Shown: positions 1,544-59,380, counted from the stretch's first letter. The stretch is DNA of 64,000 nt from Candidatus Woesearchaeota archaeon (GCA_030670545.1 DAOVBM010000003.1:1765-65764); one strand, 5' to 3'. A program made the numbers and translations. Notes: generated by a model from the sequence alone, not told the origin.

Positions 1544-1716
1544 GTAAGTAAAAAGTCAGACGTCATGGAACACAAGCATCTTCAAATCTCTTTATGTATC
1601 TATAGAAGGCTCTGCGTCCCCGAAGGGGGGCCTCCCCCGCGACGAGCAGGAAGTCTGAATAAGAAAGAGTTTTGACCTGATGATGCTGGTGCTCCTTGAA
1701 TAGCAGACTTTTTACT
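1544..1716 (+). repeat. MITE-like structured repeat element, copy 1 (family RE-A)
   Basis: Outer TIR gtaagtaaaaagtcag / cagactttttac. Inner 18-bp imperfect stem ggaacacaagcatcttca / tgatgatgctggtgctcc. Conserved core tagaaggctctgcgtccccg...cgacgagcag. Flanked by aaatttg on both sides. Related copies at 27644, 30485, 31876, 36133 and 55972. Confidence 0.65.
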
Positions 1717-5600: not shown

Positions 5601-5641
5601 ATCTTAAGAAAGTATGGAAAAGCACGCATGGTGATAGATGA
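2606..5641 (+). CDS. purL: phosphoribosylformylglycinamidine synthase, PurS-like N-terminal region fused to PurL (FGAM synthase II)
   Basis: 1011 aa, about 250 aa longer than a stand-alone archaeal PurL. N-terminal ~200 aa contain PurS-like segments (LRPGVKD...HIVQNFKV). The remainder is tandem PurM-like halves typical of PurL. The stop overlaps the purQ start (ATGATGG at 5638). Confidence 0.85.
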   Translation: MKNNGFSRLEICMDTDNPFLLDARAEVLRKRSENYFGIEIDDVKHIRVLTVDTKLDDIVKKEFQDALTNPVTQKSSYSPLIGKDDMDWVLSVTLRPGVKDTTSDTTKDMLAPLIGHSDFNVFSSSYFAIKGSNLEREQIEKIGKEMEANHIVQNFKVYSNEEWNPDVGIGRNTPKVRLNHVPTFISMPLSEITFKGIKTLSEDRQLYLNEKDIPTIAKAFNDQEFLAERKKYGLKGPTDVELEYLAQARSDHCNHNTFNARFNYLDRKTNGMTVIDNLFVEFIKNPTEQISADIADVVSVLWDNSGVRRFNKDYYYVITSETHNSPSNMEAYGGAITGIVGVYRDPLGTGKSSKLIAGSYGFCVGPRDYKGNLQPFLHPQRLQDGVIEGVKDGGNKSGIPTIFGFYYEEPENIAKSNIFVTAIGLMPVDVLHKPAYEKEISSGDLIVMSGGRVGKDGIHGVTAASEGLDENTPAGHVQIGDPYTQKKMHDFINEARDMGYLKFITDNGGGGLSSSIGEASREKNSEGKTGAEVWLDKVPLKYDGLDQWEIWVSESQERMTTAVRLPCIDDFLKLSEKHGVESTVIGKFNNDEALRIKYGSKTCAYIPTKLLEEEFPQWEFDAEWVEPEERGLYEPKGICEFINKIADHGKLFKNLLKMPNIASKEWITRQYDHEVQGTSVIKPLVGIENDIPSDAVVIRPDLNSEKGFVFTQNVKQKYSKIDTYHMVTASFDEAVRSILAVGADLGHLSGMDNFCWPSIQQGSENPDAKHKAAQLVRANVALKELCLLYNNPLLSGKDSMYIDNTMDDVETGKKVRMSGLETMQYSLVSTIDDVSDCLSCDAKEAGNLIYVIGATKNELGGSEYYAMFGEIGLNVPKTDSEHNLESYHGFVEARQYVDTVKVVKEGGLAVHLFEMAAGGNLGVNVSLQNLLIDDSVNRDDTAMYSESTGRLIVEVREENKVMFESEMGDSASCIGKFTENRFIINGLEGNEIMNENIYDLKKVWKSTHGDR

Positions 5642-6483
5642 TGGGAAAAAAGACAAAGGAAGTCAGAGCGCTTGTACCATACGGTGAAGGCCTGAACTGC
5701 GATCATGAGACAAAATATATATTTGAACTGGCTGGCGCAAGAGCTGACCTGGTGCATGTCAAGGACATAGAGTCAAAGAATGTTAAGATCAATGATTATC
5801 ATATTCTATGTTTCATAGGCGGTTTCCATGCAGGAGATGAGAATGGAGGAGCTGTCAAATGGGCATATGACACAAGAAGATTTATCTATGATGAAATTTT
5901 GGAATTTGTGTATCAGAATAAAAATATGGTGATGGGAATCTGCAATGGTTTTCAAAATTTAGCTAACCTTGGCCTTTTGCCAGGGTTTGATGACCAGGGC
6001 GGCAGGAGAGTTCTTAGTGTATCATATAATGACTGCGGAAACTTCAGGGATCAGTGGGTAAAACTTAAAGTGAATCAGGATTCACCTTGTATTTATACAA
6101 AAGGAATTGATACAATTGAGTTTCCAATAAGGCATGGAGAAGGCAAAGTCATTCCAGGAGAGAATGTTTTAGAAAAACTTGTCGATGGGAACCAGATAGT
6201 GATGCAGTATTGCATAAAACAGACAGGGGAATTAGCAAACAAGTATTTTCCTGACAATCCTAATGGTTCTGTATATGATATTGCAGGGATATGCGATCCA
6301 ACTGGAAGAATATTTGGATTGATGCCTCATCCAGAAGCATTTAATCACTGGACAAATCATGACCAATGGACCAGAAAAAAATATCATCTAAGCAAAAATA
6401 AGGAGATACTAGAATCTAAACTTGGCGATGGAGTTAAGATATTTCAGAATGCAGTGCAATATGCAAAAGAGCATCTGCTTTGA
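5638..6483 (+). CDS. purQ: phosphoribosylformylglycinamidine synthase glutamine amidotransferase subunit PurQ
   Basis: Class I GATase with catalytic GICNGFQ motif and HPE near the C-terminus. Translationally coupled to purL. Confidence 0.85.
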   Translation: MMGKKTKEVRALVPYGEGLNCDHETKYIFELAGARADLVHVKDIESKNVKINDYHILCFIGGFHAGDENGGAVKWAYDTRRFIYDEILEFVYQNKNMVMGICNGFQNLANLGLLPGFDDQGGRRVLSVSYNDCGNFRDQWVKLKVNQDSPCIYTKGIDTIEFPIRHGEGKVIPGENVLEKLVDGNQIVMQYCIKQTGELANKYFPDNPNGSVYDIAGICDPTGRIFGLMPHPEAFNHWTNHDQWTRKKYHLSKNKEILESKLGDGVKIFQNAVQYAKEHLL

Positions 6484-6565
6484 GTTTAAAAAAGATTTAT
6501 CGAAAATTTCGCAATAAATTTTATTGGGGTTTAATACCCCTCACTTCAGTGCGAAATTTTTGTTA
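6484..6565. repeat. about 80-bp intergenic repeat RE-C copy 1 (palindrome cgaaaatttcg, hairpin ggggtttaatacccc, cacttcagtg)
   Basis: Near-identical copy at 9440-9520 (agatttatcgaaaatttcgca..attttattggggtttaatacccctcacttcagtgcgaaattt). Both lie immediately 3' of plus-strand genes (purQ, gatD). Confidence 0.7.
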
Positions 6566-6589
6566 TAATAAATAATTCATATTACTAAA

Positions 6590-8130: not shown

Positions 8131-9432
8131 ATGGCAAAACCTGAGAAAGGAGATTATATTAAGATAATAACAAAAGATGAGGAATTTCAGGGCATACTTA
8201 TGCCTAGGCCTGACATTCTGGAAAAAGGCATTACAGTTCTCAAGCTGGATAATGGCTATAATCTAGGAATTAATAATACTAAGATTAAAAAAGTGGAGCC
8301 TATTGAAAAATATAAGCAAAAAAATATAAAGAAGCGTGAGATGAAGTTTAATAAGAATTTACCAACTGTTTCTATTATTTCATGCGGCGGAACAATCTCT
8401 TCAAAAATTGATTACAGGACAGGCGGGGTATATGCTGATTATACTGCTGAGGATTTTGTTGAGATGTGCCCAGAACTTGAAAAAATCGCAAATATAAAAG
8501 CAAAGAAAGTAATGAGCTTGATGAGTGAGGATATGAATCCTAAAGACTGGCAGAAAATTGCAGAAGCAATATATAAGGAGATTAAAGACTGCGACGGAGT
8601 TGTTATAACACAAGGAACTGATACACTCCATTTTACAACAGCAGCAATATCATTTTTCTTAAAAGACTTAAACAAGCCTATTATATTTACAGCATCGCAG
8701 AGGTCTATTGACAGAGGAAGCTCTGATGCATTTATGAACTTAATATGCTCAGTTACAGCAGCTGCAAAACTAGATTTTGCAGGAGTTGCAACATGCCTTC
8801 ATGGAACAATAAATGATGATTACTGTATCTTGAACAGGGGAACAAAAATAAGGAAGATGCATACTTCGAGGAGAGATGCATTCAGGCCTGTAAATGAACT
8901 GCCTCTTGCTAAAGTTTATCTAGATGGAAAAATAGAAGTCATAAATGACAAATTCATAAAAAAATCAAAATCAAAAGAGCTTAAGCCTAAACTTGACAAC
9001 AAATTTGAGCATAAGATTGCTATGATTACGATATATCCAGGTATGGACCCCCGGATAATTGATTTTTATTTGGAGAAAGGATATAAAGGGTTAGTGCTGA
9101 GCGCTACTGCTCTTGGTCATGTTCCTACATTAGTTAAGGGATATTCTCTTGAGCCTTACCTGAAAAAAGCAAAAGACCAGGGGACAGCTGTGGTCATTGC
9201 ATCCCAGACATTATACGGAAGGACACATCCATATGTATATTCTAATCTCAGAAACCTTTCTATAAAACTAAATTGTATATATTTACAAGACATGCTGCCT
9301 GAGACAGCTTATGCAAAGCTTGGCTGGGTACTTGGGCATACTTCTGATATAGAAGAAGTTAGGAAGATTATGCTTGAGAATGTTGCTGGCGAGATCAATG
9401 ACAGGCATAAGCCTGAAAGCTTCTTGTATTGA
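8131..9432 (+). CDS. gatD: glutamyl-tRNA(Gln) amidotransferase subunit D (asparaginase-like)
   Basis: Archaea-specific N-terminal domain GDYIKI...GILMP followed by an asparaginase fold (ISCGGTISS, TQGTDTL); 433 aa. Confidence 0.8.
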   Translation: MAKPEKGDYIKIITKDEEFQGILMPRPDILEKGITVLKLDNGYNLGINNTKIKKVEPIEKYKQKNIKKREMKFNKNLPTVSIISCGGTISSKIDYRTGGVYADYTAEDFVEMCPELEKIANIKAKKVMSLMSEDMNPKDWQKIAEAIYKEIKDCDGVVITQGTDTLHFTTAAISFFLKDLNKPIIFTASQRSIDRGSSDAFMNLICSVTAAAKLDFAGVATCLHGTINDDYCILNRGTKIRKMHTSRRDAFRPVNELPLAKVYLDGKIEVINDKFIKKSKSKELKPKLDNKFEHKIAMITIYPGMDPRIIDFYLEKGYKGLVLSATALGHVPTLVKGYSLEPYLKKAKDQGTAVVIASQTLYGRTHPYVYSNLRNLSIKLNCIYLQDMLPETAYAKLGWVLGHTSDIEEVRKIMLENVAGEINDRHKPESFLY

Positions 9433-9439
9433 TTTTGAT

Positions 9440-9520
9440 GCAAGATTTATCGAAAATTTCGCACGAAATTTTATTGGGGTTTAATACCCCTCACTTCAGT
9501 GCGAAATTTTGGATTCCAAA
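9440..9520. repeat. about 80-bp intergenic repeat RE-C copy 2
   Basis: About 95% identical to 6484-6565. Confidence 0.7.
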
Positions 9521-9648
9521 AATTTGATAATCTATAATGTAAATCCGTAATACTCCACCATTTATGGTGGAGATAGGATTTGCTATCAATAAATTGTCAA
9601 ATTTTTGTTATTTAAAACATATCAATCATATCATACAGAGATCTTACT

Positions 9649-10542
9649 CTAAGATTTTAACTCTTTTATTTTATCAAGAACTAATAATCTTTTCTCAGCA
9701 GGTATACTTGATCTAAACACACTCCAAAAATATCTTTCTAACCAGTTTGTCCAGGATTCATTTTTAAATTCATAAAAAAATGTTCCTACTTTCTTAAGCT
9801 CTCCTTTTTGAGAGGAAAAAGCTGGTTCTTTTAATCTGACAATTTTTCCATCAACTATAAAACTTCTTAGTGGATGTTCTTCATGCCTAATCTCAATACT
9901 ATCATAACCAAGTTTATAATTAATATTAAGAAGTTTACCAATCCTTTCTTTTGTACTTTGATCTACCCTTGCAATGATTTTTATCATAATCTTATCTTTT
10001 GCAAGTTGTTCAATAATCTCTAAAATAGTTGTTTTTCCTATTTTGAGATCAACCCAGGATAGATCTCCTGAAAACATCAATAAATTATTTGAAGTTTGTT
10101 TAAAAAATTTTAATAAGCTTTCTGTCACTTTATCAGTTGGTAATTTAATTGATTTGAAATAAGATGTTACTTCCTCTTCTGGCAAAAACTGGATTATATC
10201 TAACGGACTAAAATCCTGGCTTCTTCTTCCAGATTCAATTTTTTTCAAGATTCTTTTTTGAGCGTTTGAAATATGGACATTCACATCTGGTTGAATAAAT
10301 ACAATTTTGAATGCAACTCTGGGCCCTCTCTTGAATTCTTTAGTGCTTAACAGTCCCTCTTCTTCCATTTTAGAGATATAGTTATCTATTGTTCTCCAAT
10401 TTTTACTAAGTTTGAATGCTAACTCCTGAATAGAACATGGAGCAACAGTTAATATCTCTAATAATTTTCTTTTGATTTCTATTGTCAAGGCCATATAGGG
10501 TGTGGGTAATCTTTTATTTATAAATATTTCGTAAATATACAA
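9649..10542 (-). CDS. winged-helix transcriptional regulator-like protein with uncharacterized C-terminal domain
   Basis: N-terminus KRKLLEILTVAPCSIQELAFKLSKNWRTIDNYISKMEEEGLL is wHTH-like. A hairpin ctccaccatttatggtggag lies 3' of the gene. Confidence 0.5.
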   Translation of the reverse strand: MYIYEIFINKRLPTPYMALTIEIKRKLLEILTVAPCSIQELAFKLSKNWRTIDNYISKMEEEGLLSTKEFKRGPRVAFKIVFIQPDVNVHISNAQKRILKKIESGRRSQDFSPLDIIQFLPEEEVTSYFKSIKLPTDKVTESLLKFFKQTSNNLLMFSGDLSWVDLKIGKTTILEIIEQLAKDKIMIKIIARVDQSTKERIGKLLNINYKLGYDSIEIRHEEHPLRSFIVDGKIVRLKEPAFSSQKGELKKVGTFFYEFKNESWTNWLERYFWSVFRSSIPAEKRLLVLDKIKELKS

Positions 10543-10624
10543 TTAAGTTGTATATTTTCTACTACAAACTATTAAATAAAAGTATGAACTAATAGATATT
10601 TATAATAATTGGAGGTTTATTAAA

Positions 10625-11224
10625 ATGACAGATATTTGGGATCTTTCAGACAATAAAAAAGATTTTAAACCAAAGAAAGAAAAGGACACTATTGAAGATA
10701 ATTTCAATAGTTTTCAATTGATTCAACAAAAGAAGTTTATGCAACTTGTACAAGAGGAAATTAAATTAAGATTTGGTGATCTTCCCAAATCAGGTTATGG
10801 TGCTTCGTATTGCTGTGTGAGTCAGGGACATTATGATGGGCCAATAACCCAATTTCAAGACCAAATCTTTCGTTTAGAATCCTCCGCCAAAGGGATTGAG
10901 TGGGGATTAATAAATTATTTAGAAAAAATTCCTTTAAAGTTGGAACCTAATGTGCAGCATATTTTAACTCCTATATGCCTGTTAATGAAAGAACCACCAT
11001 TAAACTGGGAGCAACAAATAGCTGCTGAAGACATTGCAATACCTAAAGTGAGGGGATATATTTTAATTGAAAAGAGTGATGATAAAATCTACGGATTGTT
11101 GACAACAAAAAGCTTTGAACATGTTTACGATGAGATTAAAGTAGGCATTTCAAATATTCCAAAATTAAAAGGATTGAAATTAGAAGATGCAATCAACAAA
11201 TTATTTGACAACTATAATAAATAG
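10625..11224 (+). CDS. hypothetical protein
   Basis: 199-aa ORF with no recognisable motifs. Lies inside the segment bounded by the gatD 3'-end duplication. Confidence 0.4.
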   Translation: MTDIWDLSDNKKDFKPKKEKDTIEDNFNSFQLIQQKKFMQLVQEEIKLRFGDLPKSGYGASYCCVSQGHYDGPITQFQDQIFRLESSAKGIEWGLINYLEKIPLKLEPNVQHILTPICLLMKEPPLNWEQQIAAEDIAIPKVRGYILIEKSDDKIYGLLTTKSFEHVYDEIKVGISNIPKLKGLKLEDAINKLFDNYNK

Positions 11225-11239
11225 ATGGATAAAAGAAAT

Positions 11240-11292
11240 GCTGCTGCAGAACTTTACTGGTGAGATAAATGATAGGCATAATCCTGAAAGTT
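11240..11292 (+). repeat. imperfect direct duplicate of the gatD 3' end (last 17 codons plus stop), att-like
   Basis: gaactttactggtgagataaatgataggcataatcctgaaagtttcttgtattga vs 9378-9432, about 85% identity. In frame it encodes NFTGEINDRHNPESFLY* vs gatD NVAGEINDRHKPESFLY*. Confidence 0.7.
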
Positions 11293-11342
11293 TCTTGTAT
11301 TGAACCAAAAGTTTTATATACTACTCCCCAGTCATAATAGTT

Positions 11343-11687
11343 ATGAAATATATTAAATTAAAAAAATCAAAGGAACTAAGTTTAGGTTATAACACAAGAG
11401 ATATCAATTTGACTAAGTTGATTCTGGAAAGTGAATCAGGCAAACCTATCAGAATAGAATATAATCTTATCAATAAAACCAAACACACTCAATTTGGTTT
11501 TCCTTATACTGTACTTGTCCTTAAGTATTCAAACGGTATTGCAGCATGCAAAAGAAGCATAACATTTGTCAAAAGCCGCAATGGAAATAATTCACAGGAT
11601 GTTGCAAAAGCTAGTCTGGATACGCATCTGAATAATCTCGATAATTATATAAGCAGGCTGAACAGATATAGAGTAATAAAGGCTTAG
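11343..11687 (+). CDS. hypothetical protein
   Basis: 114-aa ORF, no motifs recognised. Confidence 0.35.
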   Translation: MKYIKLKKSKELSLGYNTRDINLTKLILESESGKPIRIEYNLINKTKHTQFGFPYTVLVLKYSNGIAACKRSITFVKSRNGNNSQDVAKASLDTHLNNLDNYISRLNRYRVIKA

Positions 11688-11699
11688 GATATCATGAAC

Positions 11700-12632
11700 C
11701 TATTTATTGTTTAAGATAGAATTTATCAGTGCTTGTAATCTTTCTGGGGAGAGTTTACTTCCAGTTTCTCTTGGAGAACCTCCAATTGTATCACTGCCCC
11801 CCCATCTATTATTTTCGTGTACAATTTTTCTTTCTTCTTCGTTAAGTCCTGAATATAATTTAAGAATATCAAAAGGAGCCCACACAGACCTTCTACCTAA
11901 AACATAAACAAATGAACCATCAGGTTTTTCTGCCACTAAGGTCGCAAAAGCAGTTATTCCCTCATTATACATAGCCATTCTTGAAGCATGTCCTGTTTCT
12001 CTCGTTAAAGTCCAACCATTGCCACCGCCAATCTTTTCATAATTACCATCAAGGGCAAGTTCACTGCCTTCTCCAAATATATGAGCATTTATTCTACTCT
12101 CAACAGACTCTATTACATTTCGCATTTCTGCTTCTTCCATTTGAGCAACCCTTCCATCAAAACGAGCTTGATTGTATGGTTCAAATATCCATGCCATTTT
12201 TCTTCTCATTGAAGTGTCACCAAAAGGATATGCTCCAGCTGTGCAATCAAGCCTATCCTCACAATAAACAAGACGATTGATTCTTGGCTCAGCATGATTT
12301 TTAATTAATTCATGATTTTTTAGCAGCCACCAGGCAAGACACGTATCCTCATCAGGATCATTAACATAGATATTAGCTTCTGGGACTCCATCTTTTTTAA
12401 ATGTGTCAAATAAACCCATATTTATCTCCATATGTACTTGCTCTGAAGTAGAACGAGTTGCAAATCTATCTGCTTTCGAGTGATGATCAAAATTAGCATA
12501 AGGTCCTTTTGGGTCTCTTCGAGTAGCAGAATTTACAAAACCATCTAGAGCGATAGAATAAGGAGGGGCTTTTTTCTTAAAATCACTCCAACTGTATACC
12601 CTTCTTGGTTCAACATGTAATCCCACTGCCAT
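11700..12632 (-). CDS. hypothetical protein
   Basis: 310-aa ORF filling the interval. Rich in D/H/E motifs (DHHSKADR, EDRLDC) suggestive of a metal-dependent enzyme. No family recognised. Confidence 0.45.
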   Translation of the reverse strand: MAVGLHVEPRRVYSWSDFKKKAPPYSIALDGFVNSATRRDPKGPYANFDHHSKADRFATRSTSEQVHMEINMGLFDTFKKDGVPEANIYVNDPDEDTCLAWWLLKNHELIKNHAEPRINRLVYCEDRLDCTAGAYPFGDTSMRRKMAWIFEPYNQARFDGRVAQMEEAEMRNVIESVESRINAHIFGEGSELALDGNYEKIGGGNGWTLTRETGHASRMAMYNEGITAFATLVAEKPDGSFVYVLGRRSVWAPFDILKLYSGLNEEERKIVHENNRWGGSDTIGGSPRETGSKLSPERLQALINSILNNK

Positions 12633-12793
12633 TTAGTATGTTGTTACTTAGGACTTTATAAACCTTTGGATTTAGTTACTACTTATGAGTTAATATCTGG
12701 TGTTAATCACATTTAAATACGCACAAGGATTCTCATTGAATAAGGATACACAAAATACACAAAAAGCTTTTATTAATAGAATAAAACACAATT

Positions 12794-14149
12794 ATGAAAA
12801 TGGAATATCTGTTGGATAAGATAAGATTTGAGGGGATTGAATCTGGGGATTATGAACAAAAGCTGCAAGTATGCACACCACAATTTAAGAGTTTCAATTA
12901 TAGGGAGAGTTGCGGAATAAAAAAGAGTCTTATTGGAACAAAACGCACTCTGGACACAACATATATGTCGCATGCAGTTAAGATTAAAGCAAATGTGAGA
13001 AGCATATTAGAGAGTGAACAAACCCCTGGACAAAAATCCAAACCACTAGACATAGAAAGGCTGGAAGAAGTGCTTTCATCATCCTATAATGTAAATGTCG
13101 CTATTGCAAGCGTAAATGACATTCCTGTTACAAGAAAAAAAGTCAGGGAGGTATACTTTATAAGAGATGATGACCCTGAGAAGCTGTATAAGGTATGGGT
13201 CTTCAAGGCTGACCCTGTCGCCACCCTTAAAGAACTCACTGTTTATCATATAATATACAAACAGGGCATCCCTACAGGAAAGCCTATTGGTTACAAGCCT
13301 TCTGAATCAGACACAACATATCCCTATGATATAGCTATCCTCGGTGGGATAGTTGAAAACGCAGGGGATTCATATAATGGGGTTCTAAGGAATATGAGGA
13401 TGCTTCCTGATAAGATATTCCAGACTGCCAAAGACATAGCAGAAATAATTGCAGACTATCACATTAAACTGACTCATGCAAAGGGTGAGTTTGCAAGATA
13501 TGGGATTGACTTACATGAGGCAGATACTGGAAGAGAAATAAGAGAAAGGTTTATTGCAGGACTTGGGATTGAAGAGAAATTAGGACACAGTCTGATAGAT
13601 GCATGCATAGGATTGCAAAGCACCCAGAGTGGACTGAATGTGGTTTCTCATGAAGACATAAATGAAAAGAACATTGTATCTGTCAAGAGCGGAGATGCAA
13701 TATTGTATAGAAAATTTGGAGTCATTGACTGGGCATCAATTGCAATCAACAACCCGTTTAGCGACCTTCGCGATTTCTGGATACATCACAAGAGGCAGGC
13801 ATTGAACATCTGCAGCGAATATGATTTCAGTTTTGAAGAGTTTGTTGAATCTTATGCAGAGCGATTTCAGAAGGAAAAAGGAAAGCATAAGATGGATTTT
13901 GACAAGAACAAGCTAAGGACAGACTCATTAGTGCAGTCTGTTCTCTGGAATATCTATGAGATGTATGATCCTGTAAGGGACAACCCAGAAGACATTAAAG
14001 ATAAAGCAGTAATTCACTGCCAGGCTTTATGGGATGACCTAATGCAGATTGAGGCTTTTGGCAATAAGGCCCATGCAGGCAGGATAAAAAAAGAACTAAA
14101 AATCCTCTTAAAAGATAAGCCTTATCTGCATTCTGTACTGAACTCATAA
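12794..14149 (+). CDS. protein kinase-like fold phosphotransferase family protein (APH/choline-kinase-like)
   Basis: SHEDINEKNIV resembles the H-x-D-x4-N catalytic loop, and IDWAS a DFG-like motif. Weak, by eye. Confidence 0.4.
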   Translation: MKMEYLLDKIRFEGIESGDYEQKLQVCTPQFKSFNYRESCGIKKSLIGTKRTLDTTYMSHAVKIKANVRSILESEQTPGQKSKPLDIERLEEVLSSSYNVNVAIASVNDIPVTRKKVREVYFIRDDDPEKLYKVWVFKADPVATLKELTVYHIIYKQGIPTGKPIGYKPSESDTTYPYDIAILGGIVENAGDSYNGVLRNMRMLPDKIFQTAKDIAEIIADYHIKLTHAKGEFARYGIDLHEADTGREIRERFIAGLGIEEKLGHSLIDACIGLQSTQSGLNVVSHEDINEKNIVSVKSGDAILYRKFGVIDWASIAINNPFSDLRDFWIHHKRQALNICSEYDFSFEEFVESYAERFQKEKGKHKMDFDKNKLRTDSLVQSVLWNIYEMYDPVRDNPEDIKDKAVIHCQALWDDLMQIEAFGNKAHAGRIKKELKILLKDKPYLHSVLNS

Positions 14150-27524: not shown

Positions 27525-27643
27525 TTTATTAATAAATCTTTTGATTACATATTAAATTATTAATATTAATAATAACAATATAATTAATATTCTTATTAAT
27601 ATTATTAATGATATATAAATGTTGCGGTTTATTGTATGTAGAA

Positions 27644-27808
27644 AGTCTGCTAGTCAAGGAGCACTAGCATCATCAGGTCAAAACTCATTCTATATTTATG
27701 TCCTGCTCGTCGCGAGGGGTCGCTCCATCCGGGAACGCAGAGCCTTAGAAAAACAGATGTAGAGTTTTGAAGATGCTTGTGCTCCGTTACACTGGACTTT
27801 CTACATAC
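27644..27808 (-). repeat. MITE-like repeat RE-A copy 2 (inverted orientation)
   Basis: TIR gtatgtagaaagtc / gactttctacatac. Core ctgctcgtcgcgagggg...cgggaacgcagagccttaga is the reverse complement of the family core. Confidence 0.65.
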
Positions 27809-27835
27809 GGTTTTTTGTTGGGAAAAGAATAAGAT

Positions 27836-29891: not shown

Positions 29892-30452
29892 TCAAAAACA
29901 AGGAACCGGAACAGAATCCGAAAAGAGTTCCCTTATCCTCTCTGCAAGCGTGTTCTTATCAGGCTTTTTATTAGAGAATTTATATCTTTTCATCTCAATT
30001 ATTGTGGGTAGATCGCTTTCGATAAGATACCTGACCAAAATGTCAGCAGCCCAATTATTGTCCTTTAAGTTCTGCCTGGCTTCTTCATACGAATGCATTG
30101 CGCCAAAATATTCATTATCTTTGTTCCAGTACATAATATCTTCCCCTGAAGAATCATGAATTCTGAAAATATTTGGAAGAACCGTCATTTCTATTCCTAT
30201 ATGCATCAGGATGATGCCAGCATCATAATGCAATCTATTCTTATATTGAGTCCAATACTGGATTTTTTGATACAAGGGCAGTTTAATCTTAGGAGCATGC
30301 TCTTTGTAATCTGCTATGTTCTCAGCCAGATAAATATCACTGCCCTTCAATAGGCAGATCTTTTCAGAAATAGAGGTCTGAGGAGATTGTCTTGCATACT
30401 GACTGAGGTTAATCATACTAATTTGAATAATAAAGAGATTATTTAAATTCAT
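29892..30452 (-). CDS. hypothetical protein
   Basis: 186-aa ORF between the TcmP pair and RE-A copy 3. Confidence 0.4.
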   Translation of the reverse strand: MNLNNLFIIQISMINLSQYARQSPQTSISEKICLLKGSDIYLAENIADYKEHAPKIKLPLYQKIQYWTQYKNRLHYDAGIILMHIGIEMTVLPNIFRIHDSSGEDIMYWNKDNEYFGAMHSYEEARQNLKDNNWAADILVRYLIESDLPTIIEMKRYKFSNKKPDKNTLAERIRELFSDSVPVPCF

Positions 30453-30484
30453 CGCTTCATTTTATGTAATAGCCTTTTATAAAC

Positions 30485-30638
30485 GAGCAGTAGCATCTTC
30501 AAAACTCTAGATGTGTTTTTAGAAGGCTCTGCGTCCCCGTAAGGGACAACCCCCCGCTACGAGCAGGCTGGTTTTAAAATTGATTGAGTTTTGACCTGAT
30601 GATGCTACTGCTCTAAAAATAGTAGACTTATACATACG
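30485..30638 (+). repeat. MITE-like repeat RE-A copy 3 (outer TIR degenerate)
   Basis: gagcagtagcatcttcaaaac...tagaaggctctgcgtccccgtaagggacaaccccccgctacgagcagg...gttttgacctgatgatgctactgctc. Confidence 0.65.
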
Positions 30639-30645
30639 CTTCATT

Positions 30646-30885
30646 TTAATCATCATTAATCTTTTCATAGAATTCCTTTATCTTATCTTCTTTCCATAAC
30701 TTATCCAGTTCTTTATCTGATTCAGCCAATGCTTTTCCTTTAGAAGTAAGTTTCCATGAGAAATCGCACCATCCGTTGCTTCTTACTTTCTTTTCCAGCG
30801 TTGCTATCCCCATGTTCTCAAGCTGGTATAGGTACTTTCGCTTTTCCGCAATAGATGGGTCTTTTTTCATTGTAACATCAAGCAA
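30646..30885 (-). CDS. small hypothetical protein
   Basis: 79-aa ORF; the stop lies 8 nt from the upstream gene. Confidence 0.35.
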   Translation of the reverse strand: MLDVTMKKDPSIAEKRKYLYQLENMGIATLEKKVRSNGWCDFSWKLTSKGKALAESDKELDKLWKEDKIKEFYEKINDD

Positions 30886-31687: not shown

Positions 31688-31875
31688 TTATTATTGATAG
31701 ATTTTATGCAAGAAAAAAAGTGTATGGATTAAATAACAATGCAGGATCAGCATCCCGGTAACGGCATCATCTCTATAGAAAGCAGTAGTTTGCCAAGTTC
31801 TTTTATGATGTTATTTACAATCATTATCATAATTTAATGTAAATAGCTTTGTGTTTAAAAATATATCTGAACTAG

Positions 31876-32047
31876 GTAAGTAAAAAGTCAGATGCCCAGG
31901 AGCACAAGCATCTTCAAAACTTAGGATAGGTTATTAGAAGGCTCTGCGTCCCCGTAAGGGACAACCCCCCACGACGAGCAGAATAAGGAAAAGGATTAAG
32001 TTTTGACTGATGATGCTGGTGCTCCTTGAGTAGCAGACTTTTTACTT
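31876..32047 (+). repeat. MITE-like repeat RE-A copy 4 with 9-bp target-site duplication ctgaactag
   Basis: Direct repeat ctgaactag at 31867-31875 and 32049-32057. TIR gtaagtaaaaagtcag / ctgctactc..cagactttttacttg. Abuts the gyrB stop codon (32061). Confidence 0.75.
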
Positions 32048-32060
32048 GCTGAACTAGCAA

Positions 32061-36036: not shown

Positions 36037-36132
36037 AATCCTTAATCTATATCTCAGATATTTAAGTATTAGGTTTTATTCCTAAATTAAAATAAGGCCT
36101 GAAACAAAATCTAATAAGTCATTTATAAATAA

Positions 36133-36428
36133 GCAGTAGCATCTTCAAATCTTGATGAGCATAGCTCATTAAGTCTTGAGGAACAAAGTTCCTTAAGAAC
36201 TTAGAAGGCTATGCCTTCCAAGTAACTTAGAGAGCTTTGCTCTCCAAGTACTCAAGATGTGTTTTTGGAAAGCTCTGCGTCCCCGTAGGGGGCTGCTGAG
36301 AAATTGTTTCACAATTTCTGGCACCTCGTTCGGCTTTGCCTCAGAGGTTCCCCCCGCGACGAGCAGGACTTCTAAACTGAAAGAGTTTTGACCTGATGAT
36401 GCTACTGCTCCTATGGTATCAGACTTAT
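36133..36428 (+). repeat. compound RE-A copy 5 carrying an internal ~120-bp four-hairpin array
   Basis: Family termini and core are present. The insert at 36150-36270 has four 6-bp-stem hairpins (atgagc/gctcat, aggaac/gttcct, gaaggc/gccttc, gagagc/gctctc), each followed by (c)caagtaa/cttaga. Confidence 0.65.
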
Positions 36429-36479
36429 TACAGGCAAGAAACAAAAACCTTTATAAACCCTCTTTGATTCACCAATATT

Positions 36480-41514: not shown

Positions 41515-42618
41515 ATGAGAATAGAAAAAATTAAAAAGGAAAAAATAAATAATAAAAAATTAGTAAAATATTTAACAAGAGATTACAAATTAAGAGATAG
41601 GTCAATAACCATTTTTGCATTACTTCACTCAAGATTCTTAAAAGAGATTTATTATACAGAAGCCTTAGATGTAATGACTGATGGACTTATAACAGTTTAT
41701 GTATCACCAAACGACACAGAAAGAATTAATGTCGATTTAGCTAAAGCAATTAAAAAAGATCCAGATTATATCTCAATAGCATTAAAAGAAGGTATTAGAA
41801 CTTTAAATCTTGTTAAGGAAACCACAGAGAAAAAAATAAAATGGAATATTGATAAAAAGGAAGCATTGACATTGATTAATGAAGCTGAAGATAATTGGAA
41901 TCAATTTGGAAGCTTTCTTGAATTCACTCATGCTTTAGGAAGAATAAATACAAAATTATCTAGATCACAACTAAACACCTTAGGGAAGTTTCATAATGAA
42001 AGAAAAAAAGTATTTCTAAAATTCTTTGTATATTTGGAAAATATTTGCTTATCCATAACAAAAGAATATCCTGAAATCAAACAAGAAGATCTTGCTTACC
42101 TAACTGTTAATGAAATTAAAAAGTATTTTTTGGGTGAATTGGAAACTTCCAAGATAAATAATTTACAAAATATTAGAAAGAAAGGTTATCTATATTATGT
42201 TTCTTCAAAAGGCGCAGAAGAATTGATTACTGATTTTAATAGTATGCGTGCAAAAGAATTACTTTTAAGAATAGAGGATGAAAAAACCCCGGAATTAAAT
42301 GGAACAAGCGTTTCAAAGGGTGTTGTAAAAGGAGAGGTAAAACTTATTTCAATAGATACAAAATTAGGCAAGGAGAATATTTCCCAAAAAATAATTGTTA
42401 CCACAATGACTACTCCTATTATGGATACCTTTTTGAAAAAAGTTGGAGGAATAATAACAGAAGAAGGAGGTATCTTATGTCACGCTGCAATTTTTGCAAG
42501 AGAAACAAATATTCCAACAATTACTCTAATCAAAAAGGTTACCAATATTTTAAAAGACGGAGATTTAGTTGAGGTTGATGCAAATAATGGAGTTGTTAAA
42601 ATTCTTAAAAAGGGTTAA
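41515..42618 (+). CDS. PEP-utilizing-enzyme mobile (phosphohistidine swivel) domain protein lacking the ATP-grasp domain
   Basis: C-terminal GGILCHAAIFARETNIPTI...DGDLVEVDANNGVVKILKK is the PEP-utilizer swivel domain. The last ~57 nt are nearly identical to 46828-46885 inside the giant ORF. Confidence 0.65.
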   Translation: MRIEKIKKEKINNKKLVKYLTRDYKLRDRSITIFALLHSRFLKEIYYTEALDVMTDGLITVYVSPNDTERINVDLAKAIKKDPDYISIALKEGIRTLNLVKETTEKKIKWNIDKKEALTLINEAEDNWNQFGSFLEFTHALGRINTKLSRSQLNTLGKFHNERKKVFLKFFVYLENICLSITKEYPEIKQEDLAYLTVNEIKKYFLGELETSKINNLQNIRKKGYLYYVSSKGAEELITDFNSMRAKELLLRIEDEKTPELNGTSVSKGVVKGEVKLISIDTKLGKENISQKIIVTTMTTPIMDTFLKKVGGIITEEGGILCHAAIFARETNIPTITLIKKVTNILKDGDLVEVDANNGVVKILKKG

Positions 42619-44544: not shown

Positions 44545-47500
44545 ATGAATTTAATAAAAGATTTCAGAGAAATCTCAAAATCAGATACTATTATCGCTGG
44601 AGGAAAAGGAGCATCTCTTGGAGAGATGACACAGGCAGGAATTCCTGTTCCGCCTGGTTTTGTGGTTCTTTCTGCTGCTTTTGACAGATTCATAGAAGAA
44701 ACAGATTTGAATGTAGAGATTGATGCAGCTTTAGATGAAGTTAATATCAAAGAAGTGCATACTCTTGAAAATGCTTCTGAAAAAATTCAGGCAATGATTA
44801 TATCAAAAGAAACGCCTGATGATATTAAAGAAGACGTTTTGAAATATTTTAAAGCACTTGATTCTAAATTTGTTGCAGTTCGTTCTTCTGCAACTTCAGA
44901 GGATTCTGCTTCTGCTGCATGGGCAGGACAATTAGATAGCTTTCTTAATACAACAAAAGAAACTCTCTTAGAAAATGTTAAAAAATGCTGGGCTTCGTTA
45001 TTTACTCCACGAGCTATATTTTATAGGTTTGAAAAGAAATTAGAAAAAGACAAAATTTCTGTTGCTGTTGTTGTTCAAAAGATGATTCAAAGCGAAGAAT
45101 CAGGAATCGCTTTTTCTGTTCACCCAGTTACACAAGATGAAAACCAAATAATTATTGAAGCAGGTTTTGGTTTAGGAGAAGCTATTGTTTCAGGCTCAAT
45201 TACCCCAGACAGTTATGTTATAGATAAACAAGGATTTAATATTTTAGATATAAATGTGAATGAGCAGAGTAAAGCATTATTCAAACAAAGCAATGGTGGA
45301 AACGAGTGGAAAGAGTTAGGAGAAAAAGGAAAGAAACAGGTTTTATCTGAAAAAGAGATTACTGAATTATCTAAACTTATTGTAAAAATCGAGAATCATT
45401 ATGGCTTCCCATGCGATATAGAATGGGCAAAAGAGAAAGGTAAATTCTATATTGTACAGAGCAGGCCTATTACTACGTTAAACAAAACGAAAAAGGAATC
45501 CAATACAATTAAATTGGTTTTAGGTAATCAAGATATTGATACTTCCATGCTTACATTAGAAATGACCTGGAGAGGCATGAATGATAAAAAGATTAAGTCC
45601 CAAGTTGGATTTAAAACTCCTCTTTTTTCTTGCGAAATTATCAATGGAAGAACAATAAATGGTTATATTAATCCAAAAGAATTTAAAACATTTGTAGGAA
45701 GATGTGTAAAAAGGATATTAGTAGACAAGAACTTATTAAAACATTTGAAGCAAAAATCAGAAGAGTTTGCCTCTAAAGTACAAAATATCGCTCTTGAAAA
45801 TATAAGTAAAATAGATGAGATGAATAATGATTCTTTTGCTAATCTGTTAGAAAAAATGCAGCAATATCAAAAAGAATTATCTTCATATGGAACAGTGGTT
45901 GCTTTTGTAGATGTTTTTGGAGAATTTTCCAACAAAACATCTGAAATTATTAACTCTCGTAAAAATTTAAAATATCCATCCCACATATATACTCAAGTTT
46001 TATGTAACCCTGAAATAAGAAGCCTGACAGAGCAGGCTTATAGTGATATTAAAACATCAAAAGGATCAGAAGAAAAATTGATTGAAAAATATTTTTGGTT
46101 AGATCAAGGATATATTGGAAGAGGAATTAGTAAAAAAGAAATTAAGGATATAAAAAAATGGCAACTAAAAGAGGAAATATTGCCTAAAAAAGAAATATTG
46201 TTGAAAGAGTTATCTTTAACAGAAAAGGAAAAAGATATTTTGAATATTTCTAAACAACTAATTTACATTAAATCATTAAGAGCTGATTCAAGACAATTTA
46301 TTCATGTTGTAGTAAATAGAATAATAGATAAATTATCAAAAGAATGGAATGAACCAGTTCTAAATTTAGAGTCTCTTACAGCTGATGAAGTAATAGGAAT
46401 TCTAAAACAAAAAATGCAAATCCCATTGGAATTAAACTCCAGAGTTGAACATAGTATTTTTACAATTGAAAAAGAGGGCTATAAAATACTTAAAGGAAAA
46501 GAAGCAAATGTTTTTATTGAAGAAAATATTTTAAAAGAAGAACTAAAAGATGTTAAGGAGATCACTGGTCAAGTTGCAAATCCTGGGAAAGTAAAAGGAA
46601 AGGTGAAGTTGATTTTTGGTCCTCAACATAGTAATAAAGTGCAGGAAGGAGATATACTAGTATCAACTGTGACTAGCCCACAATTATTACCTGCGATGAA
46701 AAAATCGGCAGCCTTTGTAACTGACTTAGGCGGAATTACTTCTCATGCAGCAATAGTTTCCAGAGAATTAAATAAGCCCTGTATTGTTGGCACTGAAATA
46801 GCAACTCAAATCTTAAGCGACGGAGATTTAGTTGAGGTTGATGCAAATAACGGAGTTGTTAAAATTCTTAAAAAAGCTAATGGCTCCCCTTGTGATATAG
46901 AATTGGCAAAAGAGGAAGGTAAATCTAAAATTAGTAATCTTAAAAACAATTTTTATATACTACACACTTCTGTATCTGGATTTAGTTTGTTATTATTTGA
47001 TCTTATGCTTAATATTAAAACTTACGGTGCAGTTGATTATAGGGTTTTATGTGAAAATGATATATCTTTAATGTATTTAACAAAAAAAGGAATGAAACAA
47101 GCATACCAATTAAGTAAAAAATTACTCAATAACAATTTGTTTACAAAAATATTTAATGATTCCAAAAAACTAAATGATAATTTAAAAGCATATAAACCCT
47201 CGAATCTAAATGGGAAAAATATAATTGAGGAATGGGAAAAATATGTAAAACTAGTTAATGAATTTTGTCGATTATATAGGTTTTATGAACAACCATTTCA
47301 ACAAGCATTAGAAGAAAATGTTTTAAGCTATATTCCAGAACAGAAATTAATGGAATATCTATCTAATTCTAATAAAAAACAAACAAAAAACATTAACATC
47401 AGTAGTGAGGGAAAAGTTGCTCTTGATAGGTTAATAAAACTTGGAAATATGAAATTAGAATTACATAAAAATGCGGCGAGATTAGTCACAATAGATTTGA

Positions 47501-50500
47501 TGAAGTTTGTGAAGTTTGTCGCTCAGAAAAATAGTATTTCCATACAAGTTGCACAGTCTTTAAGAAATAACGAATTTATGGATGCAATGACTGGAAAACC
47601 TGCTAATATTAGATTAGCAAAAGAACGTTTAAATGGTTGTGCATTAGTAAAAAGAAATAATAGTTGGTATTTTGATTCAGGAGACAAATATTTATATTGG
47701 AAAAATAAGATACAGAAAACTCAAAGTAAAAAAATAATTGGCAATATTGCATTTCCTGGAAAGGTAAGAGGGAAGGTTGTACTACACCTATCATGGACAG
47801 ATACTACAAAACTTAGTAAAGGCGATATTTTAGTAACCGGGATGACAAACCCTCAAATGATTCCCTTTATTAAAAATGCAGGGGCAATAATTACTGACGA
47901 AGGAGGGATCACTTGTCATGCTGCAATAATTTCTCGTGAGATGAGAAAGCCTTGTATTACAGGAACAAAAAATGCAACGCAATTATTGAAAGATGGAGAT
48001 TTAGTTGAGGTTGATGCTAATAAGGGAACTGTTACAATTCTTAAAAAAGCTAATGGCTTCACCAGTGATATAGAATTGGCAAAAGAGAAAGGTAAATCTT
48101 CTATTGTGCAGAGCAGACCGAGAACTACCATGGATAAAATATCTAAAGACCAAAGAATCTTTAAGATAGAGAAAAACAGCAATTATTTTCCTGTAGTATC
48201 TAGAAAACTCTCTTTACTTCACAAAAGTATTGGTGTTTTAGGGATTACTGATAGCAACATATATCAAAGAATTTTTGGTTTTCCTACAAGATATAAACCA
48301 TTTTATGATAGCCAACAAGGACTTTATTTTAACCGAAAATCAGTAGAATATGAAAAAAAAGAGATTTTAAAAAAGATATCAAAAGATCCAAAATATTTAG
48401 AAAAGATTTCTAAAAAATGTGAATGTGATGGAGATAAACTTTTAGATTTTAGTAAACAAATAAAAAAAACAGATTTTTCCAAAAAAACAGATGCACAGAT
48501 AAAAAATATTACTCAAAAAATTTTCAAATCTTATATTGAGTATACAGCATATATAATGCCTATTCTTTCAGTTCAGGAATATTTGGAGAAAAACATTAGA
48601 AAAAATATTGAAAAGACCATAAAAAATAAAAAACAGATAGAGAAATATTTGCATATTTTAACTGTGCCAATTAAGAATAATTTTGGTTATTTTGAACAGA
48701 TTGAAATCTTAAAATTAGCAAATTTTTATAAAAATAATAAAAACAAGATTATTCCTGCTTTAAAAAGAAAGATTGATAGATATCTTTTTGAGTTTAGTTC
48801 TATTGGCGTGAAATATGGAATCGGGAAATTATGGACTGAAAAAAGCGTAATAGAAAGGATAATTTATTTATCCAAAAAATATCCAGATAAAAAATTAAAA
48901 CATTTGCAAGATTTTCCAAAACTCCAGCAAGAAAAAATTGATTATGTTTTAAAAGAACTAAAGGCAAACAAAAATTTTAGAAAATTTGTTAAAATAGCAA
49001 GAATTTATATTTATTTAAGAACATATAGGACTGATATTATAAGCAATGCACTTGCCAATATGTTTCCTTTATTTGGAGAGATTGCCAAGAGAAATAATGC
49101 TGAATTAGAGGATATATTAAAGTGTTTGTCTAAAGAGATTATTAGTTTTGATATCCCTGATAGAGAATTCTTAAATATGAGGAATAAAACAATTTTAATA
49201 AGGAGCATTAATGGCAGGATGTATTATATATACGGAAAGGAAGCAGAAGAATTAACTAATAATCTTAAAAAGTCTGTTGGATTATATAATGAAAAAGATC
49301 AAGTAAACAAAAAGATAAACAGTTTAATAAAAGGTAGTGCGGCTAATATAGGTAAGGTAAAGGGAGAAGTAAAAATAGTTTTAGATAATAGTCAACTGGA
49401 TAATGTTTTTGATGGTGATATCCTAGTTGCTTCAATGACTACTCCTGATTTCGTTCCTGCAATGGAAAAGGCATCAGCATTTATTACAGATGAAGGTGGG
49501 ATATTATGTCATGCAGCGATTGTATCAAGAGAAATGAATAAACCATGCATAATCGGAACCAAAGTTGCCACTAAAGTTTTAAAAGATGGAGATTTAGTAG
49601 AAGTCGATGCAGATAAAGGAACTGTTACAATTCTTAAAAAAGCTAATGGTTCCCCTTGTGATATAGAATTGGCAAAAGAGAAAGGTAAATCCTCTATTGT
49701 GCAGAGCAGGCCGAGAAGTACCTTAAAAAATAAAGATTTAAAGAATAAAGATCAGGAAATATTTCAAATAATACGTGATAGGGAAATTATGTTGGCGCCA
49801 GTATATTGGGTACCAATGTCTATTACTTCGTTAGGAGCTAAGAGAATATATGGGATTATTAATAAAAACACATATCAAATATACAAAAATGGAAGAATGA
49901 AGGCTGTTTTTATAAAAAATGAAGTTGATCAAATTAGGGAGTGCATAGTAAGCAAAATATTAGATGATAATAATTATTTTAATAGAATTAGAAAGCAAAT
50001 TGAAAATAGAGAAAATAAGCTAAATAATTATTTTAAATATTTTAAGTCTATCAATCTATCTGATTTAAGTCTCCATAAAATTATAGGCTTAATCAGAAGA
50101 ATGGAAAAAGTCTACATTGATTATGAAGATTCTAACATATCAGCATGGTTTATTGCAGCAGATAAATTCCAGGCAGAATTAGAAAAAGAATTAAATATTT
50201 CTGAGAAAGATTTTCTTTTACTTCTTACTCCTAAGACTAAAACTGCTGTAAATCAATTAGAATTTGATTTAAATAAATATTTTAAACAAATAAAAACAAA
50301 CAAATTGGAACTTAAAACTGCTGCTCGTAAATTATCAGAAGATTTTGGCTGGTTGCCTTTTGGTTTTGATGGTCCAGAATACTGGGATGCAAAGTATTTT
50401 GAGAATAAACTTGAAGCTATGTTCAGAGCTAATGAAAAAAAGATACTTTCCAAATTTAATACAATGCAAAAAGAAGAAAACGAAATAGTGATTCAGCAGA

Positions 50501-51198: not shown

Positions 51199-52103
51199 GA
51201 AATATGTCTTTTTTTACAAATCTTGTAAACATAGAAGAACATTTTAAGAAGATAAATGAATTCATTGGAGAAACAGAATTCCCAAAAGATAAAATGAATT
51301 CAATAAAATATGAAATAAAACTTATAAATTATTATATTAAATTTATTACAAAAAAACACGAGTCAATAAATCCTGATATAGCTGCTAAGCTAATCTCAAT
51401 AAAGGATCAACTTAATAAATCACATAGGCTTTCATTATTGGAATTTAGAAAAGAATTTCTGAATATAACAAAAGAATTTGAAGCTATTTTTGATTTAACA
51501 CCAGTTTATTTAATGCGGCATCCAGAAAAACCTAAAGAAAAAACAAGGCATCTGTCTTTTGGTGGAGTAAGGCAGGCTAAAGGAGTTGCTGAATATTTAG
51601 CTGAGGAATGTTTACTTTGTCCTAAACCAGTACATGTTTATTTATTTTGCAGCGATGAAAGGAGAACTTATTTATTCGCAAATGTGATACAAAAAAAATT
51701 AGAGCAATTGACAAAGTTTTATGATAAAAAGATTAAAATAGAAAAGATTGTGCCTGATCCTGCATTATATTTTAGATTTACTAATGAAGCTATAAATGAA
51801 ACATTGGAGGAGTATAAGCAAAGTGATTTTTTAGCCTTCACTACATGGATAAAAGGAAAATATAAACTTTGTCCAAATCCAATAAAAGTGATAAAGGAGC
51901 TTGATGCCTGGGTAAAGAACTCAAAAGCAAAGAGACATAATGGAGAATGGACGATTGTTGTTGGGATATCGCATTCATTTATCATTGATGTATTGCTATC
52001 CTCAGTTACTAAAGAACATAAAAGTATTATTCCTACAGCAGGATTTGTTAAATTTAGAGGTAATCAAATGTTTTATGATAATAAATGGTATAATTTTGGT
52101 TAA
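51195..52103 (+). CDS. hypothetical protein with histidine-phosphatase (PGAM-like) C-terminal region
   Basis: YLMRHPEK (RHG-like) and VVGISHSFII (second His) spaced as in the histidine phosphatase superfamily. 4-bp overlap with the giant ORF's stop. Weak, by eye. Confidence 0.4.
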   Translation: MRNMSFFTNLVNIEEHFKKINEFIGETEFPKDKMNSIKYEIKLINYYIKFITKKHESINPDIAAKLISIKDQLNKSHRLSLLEFRKEFLNITKEFEAIFDLTPVYLMRHPEKPKEKTRHLSFGGVRQAKGVAEYLAEECLLCPKPVHVYLFCSDERRTYLFANVIQKKLEQLTKFYDKKIKIEKIVPDPALYFRFTNEAINETLEEYKQSDFLAFTTWIKGKYKLCPNPIKVIKELDAWVKNSKAKRHNGEWTIVVGISHSFIIDVLLSSVTKEHKSIIPTAGFVKFRGNQMFYDNKWYNFG

Positions 52104-52171
52104 TATTATGATTATACTGGATAGCATAAAAACCTTATTCACCAAGAGGATCAATATCTTTTCAGGGATAG

Positions 52172-52218
52172 AAGTAGAAGTTGATGCTAATAAGGGAACT
52201 GTTACAATTCTTAAATAA
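52172..52218 (+). repeat. 47-bp relic of the swivel-module 3' end (gtagaagttgatgctaataagggaactgttacaattcttaaataa)
   Basis: Identical or near-identical to 48009-48047, 49600-49640 and 51143-51170; encodes (V)EVDANKGTVTILK*. Confidence 0.7.
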
Positions 52219-52231
52219 GTTCTGCCATTTC

Positions 52232-55870: not shown

Positions 55871-55971
55871 AATAACCCCCCTAATCCCTCTATGAATATG
55901 TTAATCTTTAAAGAAAGAAGGAGTATATTTAAAGGTTATTATTTTTTTGTATCTATTTAATCATATATAAA

Positions 55972-59263: not shown

Positions 59264-59380
59264 ATAGTTAAAACACCCATCCCCTATTTAAATGCCTGAG
59301 GTATTTTTAAATAGTTTTGTTTTCTCTATAGAATGATAACAAGAGAAATGTTTATAAAGCTCTTTTCAACTCTGTACTAT

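Follow-up and report, generated by a model that had tools for sequence, protein, structure and literature searches.

The window, by which we mean the whole 64-kb stretch of DNA analysed, carries ordinary chromosomal genes, assigned with Pfam to NIF3, GyrB, AspRS, a P-type ATPase and radical-SAM enzymes, together with six copies of a repeated element, RE-A, referred to here as w1 to w6. Since the named relatives of its GyrB, which is 100% identical to an NCBI protein, are Nanoarchaeota and Woesearchaeota, the host is a DPANN archaeon. No tRNA or tmRNA genes were found in the window. Several further repeats and open reading frames (ORFs) were noted. A second intergenic repeat of 82 nt, with a GGGGTTTAATACCCC hairpin within an CGAAAATTTCGCA/TGCGAAATTTT inverted repeat, occurs in two 90% identical copies (6492-6573 and 9442-9523), each directly after the stop codon of a gene on the + strand (5638-6483 and 8131-9432, respectively), and may be another small mobile or terminator-like element. 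Just left of w1, positions 1146-1376 are occupied by a T-rich repeat with a 15-nt periodicity (TTTTTGCAGCTTTCTTTTTCAC...), whose - strand probably codes for a repetitive protein rich in Lys and Ala. At 9649-14149, where the left half of the window is richest in A+T (G+C of 0.31 at 10-12 kb), there are three ORFs (297, 310 and 451 amino acids) without a Pfam match. An ORF of 2217 amino acids (44545-52219) contains internal repeats of about 1.2-1.6 kb, and the end motif of its repeat, AGTTGAGGTTGATGC..., recurs at the ends of neighbouring ORFs (also at 42340-42612). Finally, three tandem paralogous genes of about 200 amino acids, with a period of 624 nt and a DNA identity of 75-89%, are located at 59333-61228.

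When the window was searched with the 20-nt core word TAGAAGGCTCTGCGTCCCCG, allowing up to 3 mismatches, exactly six matches were obtained, at 1603 (+), 27730 (-), 30520 (+), 31935 (+), 36266 (+) and 56108 (+), compared with an expectation of 0.00 from dinucleotide shuffles of the window. The copies thus lie where an earlier sequence-only reading had placed them. They are long imperfect hairpins with outer repeats, an inner stem (GGAGCACAAGCAUCUUCA with UGAUGAUGCUGGUGCUCC) and a GC-rich centre, and two of them, w5 and w6, are compound copies made larger by additional hairpins; all these parts, which that reading had described, were seen again when the copies were read one by one. Their G+C content (0.41-0.47) is also, as it had proposed, above that of the surroundings, where the majority of 2-kb windows have about 0.28-0.42. 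The limits it had given were revised by means of the terminal repeats and target duplications, which place, for example, w1 at 1544-1718 and w6 at 55949-56380, so that the non-coding unit of the window copies measures 172-432 bp. The terminal inverted repeat GTAAGTAAAAAGTC..., which it had considered common to all copies, is clean in w1, w2 and w4 only and has diverged in w3, w5 and w6. Its view that all copies are intergenic holds almost wholly, the exception being w6, inside which the P-type ATPase ORF (56348-59263, -) ends. The last 10 codons and the stop codon of this ORF are supplied by the right end of w6 (56348-56380) and, since they are element sequence, the insertion has either replaced or extended the C-terminus of the ATPase. 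The sole ORF of at least 80 amino acids lying almost wholly within a copy (36193-36444, -) is found in the repeat-rich w5, and the conservation pattern of the copies is that of paired stems, not of codons.

The focal copy w1 (1544-1718, +) is complete, with a length of 175 bp, and its ends read GTAAGTAAAAAGTC... and ...GACTTTTTACTCC. Its left target-site duplication, GCAAATTTG (1535-1543), matches the right one, CAAAATTTG (1719-1727), at 7/9 positions. The 5' strand of stem P1 (1568-1580, +) has its partner strand at 1682-1694; the outer 7 nt of this stem covary across copies, and its inner AGCAUC is invariant in the canonical class. The 5' strand of P2 (1582-1590, +) reads UCAAAUCUC, the family consensus being UCAAAACUC, and is paired with GAGUUUUGA at 1667-1675. 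A large internal loop of variable sequence follows, whose left strand (1591-1608, +) is the place where the tandem mini-hairpins of w5 and w6 are inserted and whose right strand covers 1648-1666 (+). Between the two strands lies the GC-rich core (1609-1647, +), made up of P3 (1609-1616 with 1638-1647, +), P4 (1617-1620 with 1626-1629, +), a linker (1630-1632) and a C-run (1633-1637, +) that covaries with the P4 pair 53/64. The right arm (1667-1694, +) comprises the 3' strand of P2, the junction CCUGAU (1676-1681) and the 3' strand of P1.

The second copy, w2 (27635-27808, -; 174 bp), has GTATGTAGAAAGTC at both ends and is flanked by the duplications GGTTTATTG and GGTTTTTTG (27626-27634 and 27809-27817, 8/9). 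For w3 (30465-30636, +; 172 bp), with its diverged outer repeats, the duplication is CGCTTCATTTTA (30453-30464 and 30637-30648, 12/12), and for w4 (31876-32048, +; 173 bp) it is CTGAACTAG (31867-31875 and 32049-32057, 9/9), the right-hand one ending 3 nt from the gyrB stop codon. The 328-bp compound copy w5 (36110-36437, +) is enlarged by a tandem series of mini-hairpins in its left loop and by two more hairpins in the P4 linker, and lies between two copies of GAAACAAAA (36101-36109 and 36438-36446, 9/9). In the 432-bp compound copy w6 (55949-56380, +), left-loop mini-hairpins are accompanied by about 170 nt of more hairpins in the right loop; its flanks read TATTTTTTT and TATTTTTGG (7/9), and its arms derive from two different P1 variants. 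As for the surroundings of w3 (30450-30490), its target duplication ends 1 nt from the ATG of the ORF 29892-30452 (-), and its left end bears an outward-facing TTTATAAA box 22 nt from the same ATG. This spacing would fit a leaderless archaeal transcript, and similar boxes are present at the left ends of w5 and w6.

A target-site duplication of about 9 bp is thus present on all six window copies (12/12, 9/9, 9/9, 8/9, 7/9 and 7/9). The window copies begin with GTA(A/T)GTA(A/G)AAAGTC, and the ends of w1 and w4 can be written as (G/C)(T/A)AAGTAAAAAGTC. Among the loci and contigs from other genomes and metagenomes, which are given L numbers, the metagenome subfamily carries GGCTCTGTAGAA at both ends, the termini of the largest such subfamily read GGCTCTGTAGAATTACC and those of L024 GGCTCTGTAGAAAGTC. 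Duplications were found there too, on at least nine further copies, with TTTTTGATA (L050), TTTTCTTTG (L027), CTATGGGTTTG (L035), TATTTTTGATA (L037), AATGATAA (L029), GATATAAT (L033), AATGGTCC (L015), TACGAAAAA (L020) and GAGGTTAAA (L022), all of them immediately adjoining the inverted termini and consistent in their distance from the arms. Of 29 copies, 9 are flanked by direct repeats of at least 9 nt, versus 6.7% of mismatched flank pairs, the control being flanks taken from different copies; in about a third of the copies the duplication is absent. Copies lie in either orientation relative to neighbouring genes, and the same module is found both with short termini of 8-10 nt and with long ones that extend about 30 nt beyond the arms. 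Taken together, the six copies are very probably miniature transposable elements of the MITE type with duplications of about 9 bp. A non-autonomous, MITE-like transposon was one of the two explanations offered by the sequence-only reading, and the terminal inverted repeats and duplications, on 6/6 window copies and on relatives elsewhere, bear it out, as does the absence of the element from the gyrB regions of three related genomes described below.

Partial and rearranged copies exist as well. At L023:2650-2836, a full copy and a 3' half-copy are joined directly (GATGC-ACAA-GCATC), as if part of the element had been duplicated in tandem at the palindromic P1. At L004:4088-4390 and L041:1898-2200, a variant B module and a canonical module form a head-to-head dimer, in which the modules are 6-7 nt apart and are bounded by the two 3' tails as inverted repeats. 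The flanks of this dimer are unrelated between the two contigs, from which it follows that both modules move together; for the same reason, L004 and L041 are separate insertions and a test for compensatory evolution in situ fails. Finally, L051:7413-7554, from the same metagenome gene pool, is a different MITE of 142 bp that has the same termini (GGCTTGGTAGAAAATC / GGCTCTGTAGAAAATC) and an unrelated, hairpin-rich interior.

An exact scan with a 19-mer of the right arm retrieved 11 contigs of species-representative genomes, belonging to Woesearchaeota, Nanoarchaeota, an unclassified archaeon and two MAGs labelled Methanosarcinales, as well as about 21 metagenome contigs, with several copies per metagenome. 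In the same scan no viral contig with the element was found, and the other matches to the 19-mer were chance ones inside bacterial genes. A covariance model built from 25 distinct copies recovered every copy found by the scan plus diverged variants, and gave 0 matches in 758 kb of unrelated viral DNA. No match to the model was obtained in the gyrB regions of three relatives whose GyrB is 79-83% identical (six loci, 107 kb), and the family is patchy among related genomes. A search for an orthologous empty site by means of identical flanking proteins found none and returned only short contigs, the breaks in these short-read contigs of the same organism falling inside copies. Contigs L012, L015 and L016, which carry the element, come from the two MAGs labelled 'uncultured Methanosarcinales', and these copies either are mis-binned DPANN DNA or were transferred between a DPANN symbiont and an organism that may be its host. 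Given the very small size of DPANN genomes, a density of one MITE per 10 kb represents a notable load, which also accounts for contig breaks in DPANN assemblies. The 9-bp duplications and the IS903-like ends discussed below offer markers for tracing transposition and gene flow among uncultured Woesearchaeota.

In the consensus of the interior, P1 is separated from P2 by an asymmetric junction that is fixed (a U facing CCUGAU); beyond P2 come a large internal loop with strands of about 19 and 21 nt and variable sequence, P3, P4 and then the C-run. In the canonical class, about 35 nt of the two arms are near-invariant across genomes (left, AGCAUCUUCAAAAC(U); right, GUUUUGACCUGAUGAUGCU). In the alignment of 25 copies, the exceptions are w1, whose left arm has an A-to-U change, and w4, whose right arm lacks one C. 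In the 7 bp outside these arms, the sequence is wholly changed and complementarity is kept. The full-length fold of w4 has an energy of -61.8 kcal/mol (z = -5.9). Over the 25 distinct copies, standard pairs were present in 95.9% of the cells, versus 85.5% when shuffled (0/500) and about 40% with the partners slid, and thirteen pairs had changed on both sides. Since covariation in P1 might mean only that transposon ends match, P3 and P4 were tested alone. Here, 95.7% of the cells were paired, versus 87.1% when shuffled (0/500) and 42-54% when slid, examples of covarying pairs being 46/81 (UA/GC/CG), 53/64 (CG/UA) and 52/65 (UG/UA/CG). Pairing is thus maintained by compensatory changes beyond what either control, shuffles or slid partners, leads one to expect, with counts that are inflated by shared ancestry, since the sample consists of 25-37 related copies from few lineages.

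Diverged modules tell more about the same fold. In variant B (L004:4109-4233, -, and L041:2055-2179, +), AGCAUC/GAUGCU is replaced by ACCGUC/GACGGU, a compensatory change within the 'invariant' arm, and in L005 a U-A pair of P2 has become C-G. Variants C and D (L037:9180-9308, -, and L010:6621-6745, +) have a different junction and the same core, CCCCGNNNGGGRCAACCCCCC. Additional hairpins are confined to loops, the left one in w5, w6 and L018 and the right one in w6, and hairpins in the linker after P4 are seen in w5, L005, L015, L016, L032 and L049. The mini-hairpins, of about 23 nt and the form CUURG-N5-N3-N5-CYAAG, are inserted in tandem in the left loop or arm at 36139-36260 (w5), 55987-56095 (w6) and L018:9-56, and were seen in this lineage only; in the five inserted ones, the fourth position is occupied by G·U or A·C in every case and never by a Watson-Crick pair. 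A DNA palindrome undergoing intrastrand repair could show changes that mimic compensatory ones. We think it likely that the interior is kept by selection on a fold, and such a covarying, partly invariant interior is unusual for a MITE.

Our best guess from the sequences is that a compact, stable RNA fold would form when the element is transcribed; that this fold also acts as RNA is possible, with a probability that we put slightly below even. The module would then work as a single-stranded fold, most likely RNA from the strand that has two conserved U·G pairs, 48/77 (15/25 copies) and 52/65 (20/25 copies). Conserved wobble pairs do favour one strand, G·U cells numbering 47 versus 8 for A·C, of which 35 G·U cells are at the two fixed positions and 12 versus 8 remain elsewhere. 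A further feature is the three-way covariation of columns 53, 64 and 73, which read C,G,C in 13 copies, U,A,U in eight, U,U,U in three and C,A,U in one. Column 73 belongs to the unpaired C-run and changes along with the P4 pair 53/64, a pattern that we tentatively attribute to C+·G-C / U·A-U major-groove base triples; an alternative 3-bp helix conflicts with the covarying pair 51/74. The C-run would dock in the groove of P4 through such triples and so give a compact, stable fold, whose candidate benefits are RNA stability, insulation of read-through transcripts or the binding of a partner protein. If the interior is RNA, this would be a structured RNA spreading as transposon cargo in archaea, together with a compact candidate for such a triple in nature; otherwise, the family is still well suited to asking what makes a MITE retain an internal fold.

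The main competitor of this RNA reading is a purely DNA-level palindromic MITE, in which hairpin potential would matter in DNA only, for example by bringing the two ends together, by forming a single-stranded DNA hairpin at replication or through intrastrand mismatch repair that keeps complementarity, and in which the interior would have no RNA role. Such an element agrees with the DNA transposition shown by terminal repeats and target duplications, and P1 covariation is what matching transposon ends should display. Folding energies (MFE) revealed no difference between the strands, and no promoter or terminator was found at a fixed distance, TATA-like boxes lying at inconsistent distances. Orientation with respect to neighbours is near random, with the upstream neighbour pointing away in 19/28 copies and no bias downstream, which makes a strand-specific RNA role awkward. 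However, a palindrome maintained by repair should not keep two U·G (T·G) wobbles unrepaired in 15-20/25 copies, nor should its mini-hairpins retain a G·U or A·C wobble throughout. Moreover, the centre is not palindromic, the loops being non-complementary and the C-run unpaired, the trio 53/64/73 changes jointly, and the MITE at L051 lives with the same ends without this interior, so that we judge the DNA-only explanation unlikely. The other proposal of the sequence-only reading, a structured RNA spreading like a transposon, stands as far as the covarying fold is concerned, including an internal hairpin for which the need of matching ends does not account, and falls short in that no transcript, promoter or strand was established. 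Going further, the MITE might be the vehicle for a functional RNA gene of about 110 nt that spreads through DPANN genomes. Under this reading the RNA would combine a protonated-cytosine triple helix with two variable single-stranded stretches, and would act with its transposase or as a host-level regulator. We consider it improbable, all parts included; if true, it would represent a new class of mobile structured RNA in archaea.

Other origins fit less well. The covarying fold with invariant segments and the conservation of the family in several MAGs would also be expected of an ordinary multi-copy family of trans-acting sRNA genes that was duplicated by recombination and is not a transposon. 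Yet duplications of constant length sit at the outer ends, these ends are terminal inverted repeats, the element is missing from close relatives, contigs break inside copies, partial and dimeric copies occur, and there is no conserved promoter at a fixed distance, all of which makes this origin very unlikely. A SINE-like retroelement, whose RNA would be copied back by a reverse transcriptase, could account for an interior resembling structured RNA, for the target duplications and for the degraded 5' outer repeat of some copies (w3, w5 and w6). Constant duplications of about 9 bp and inverted-repeat ends are, however, typical of DDE transposition, an A-tail is absent, the 5' ends of those three copies are diverged rather than truncated, and no reverse transcriptase was detected, either in the Pfam scan of 20 window ORFs or among genes called on the contigs of the relatives, which leaves little room for it. 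As regards a self-cleaving, hammerhead-like ribozyme (CUGAUGA) or a C/D-box guide RNA (UGAUGA/CUGA), the latter suggested by the sequence-only reading, CUGAUGA does occur in the right arm of canonical copies. There, on the 3' arm, it lies at a two-way junction opposite UCUUC, UGAUGA being paired with UCUUCA; GAAA and a three-way junction are absent and the G of CUGAUGA (G13) is not conserved, since variant B has CUUAUGA (hence UUAUGA) and variants C and D a different junction. Both were rejected, a hammerhead on these grounds and a box C/D sRNA with kink-turn because the required boxes and GA pairs are absent, CUGA not being conserved and G·A pairs opposite the word being impossible. Rfam 15 gave nothing at gathering thresholds for the whole window and, at E up to 10, only noise for w1, w6 and five other loci, with no C/D family above that noise, so that a ribozyme or guide RNA of either type can be given hardly any credence.

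Some further candidates were tried and discarded. Inspection by hand revealed neither the opposed 3-nt bulges of a bulge-helix-bulge intron in the arms nor the outermost AAC/GTT of an integron attC site. The idea of a guide RNA whose loops specify the target was also abandoned: L027 and L052 share the same right loop and have unrelated target duplications, which means that the loops do not encode the target. Resemblances of the core seen by eye to SRP RNA helix 8, to the nadA motif and to the hairpin just inside the right end of IS903 were treated as coincidence.

As a whole, the material is best explained by a MITE family that is moved in trans and carries a folded passenger module, an account that we favour with moderate confidence. 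The module would be a passenger outside the transposition machinery, because the L051 MITE has the same termini and an unrelated interior. From this interior and from the variants with long and short termini, the terminal repeats appear to be sufficient for movement, the module being kept for other reasons. The enzyme moving the copies would be a DDE transposase whose cuts are staggered by 9 bp, most likely of the IS903-group type within the IS5 family, given the likeness between the ends seen in the metagenome subfamilies and the inverted repeat of IS903. In IS903B, the inverted repeats read GGCTTTGTTGAATAAATC and the direct repeat measures 9 bp (PMC10569121). The termini GGCTCTGTAGAATTACC match this inverted repeat at 13/17 positions when anchored at the tip, and the duplication length of about 9 bp agrees with the IS903 group of the IS5 family. 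This 13/17 match is seen in the Ga0210057 and L024 subfamilies; the window copies share its inner part (GTATGTAGAAAGTC) and not the GGC tip. Since they start with GTA(A/T)GTA instead, the resemblance rests mainly on the metagenome subfamilies. With the IS903B transposase of plasmid Rts1 as a query, tblastn gave no match in the window, in the first 60 loci or in six viral-contig loci with a terminus match, and no transposase was present among the 20 window ORFs scanned against Pfam. Arm words with up to 3 mismatches and terminus words did not bracket any ORF as a pair in the window, the loci or the viral contigs, lone arm-word matches being chance ones within genes. An autonomous, transposase-encoding partner with matching ends, for which the sequence-only reading had proposed to look, was thus found neither in the window nor in the first 60 loci or the six loci on viral contigs. 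Mobilisation by an IS5/IS903-type enzyme is a lead that could equally turn out right or wrong.

The family is new, and no similar one is present in Rfam 15 or in the searchable literature: a full-text search for the arm sequences returned unrelated primers only, and general searches on DPANN archaea, MITEs and structured RNA brought up no description fitting it. Among bacterial repeats, the pneumococcal BOX elements (modular, A-B-C), the Correia elements of Neisseria and the enterobacterial ERIC sequences are multi-copy, intergenic and MITE-like, have a strong hairpin potential and, like this family, can be co-transcribed with neighbouring genes. BOX-type repeats are in addition modular with a variable number of inserted sub-units, boxB being comparable to the CTTRG...CYAAG mini-hairpins described here. 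All of them are bacterial and have no sequence relation to this archaeal family, and we know of no report of compensatory changes or of a base-triple-like trio in any of the three. In Sulfolobus, SM1-SM4 are non-autonomous archaeal MITEs with terminal repeats and target duplications that are mobilised by the transposases of resident IS elements; they belong to a different phylum and have extended terminal sequence in common with known ISC elements, and to our knowledge none has a conserved, covarying internal fold.

With archaeal box C/D sRNAs, the module shares the UGAUGA word and a comparable layout, made up of a terminal stem, a pair of variable single-stranded stretches and a structured apex. 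It differs from them in that there is no box D, in that the word lies on the 3' side, is paired and is not conserved in sister variants, and in its size of about 110 nt versus 50-70 nt, with no Rfam match. The closest parallel among mobile elements is with the IS903 group and with MITEAba12 of Acinetobacter, which is related to ISAba12 and has 113 bp, 16-bp terminal repeats and 9-bp duplications, its identity with the IS being confined to the ends (PMC6382973). Like MITEAba12, the elements described here are small (from 172 bp upward) and non-coding; their terminal inverted repeats measure about 16-18 bp, their target duplications are 9 bp long, and similarity to any autonomous IS is confined to the termini. 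In contrast to it, they reside in a DPANN archaeal host, the window copies begin with GTA instead of GGC, and a partner transposase was not found in the loci searched. The most striking difference concerns the interior, since MITEAba12 is 78% A+T with weak predicted structure (PMC6382973), whereas that of RE-A is GC-rich, partly invariant and covarying.
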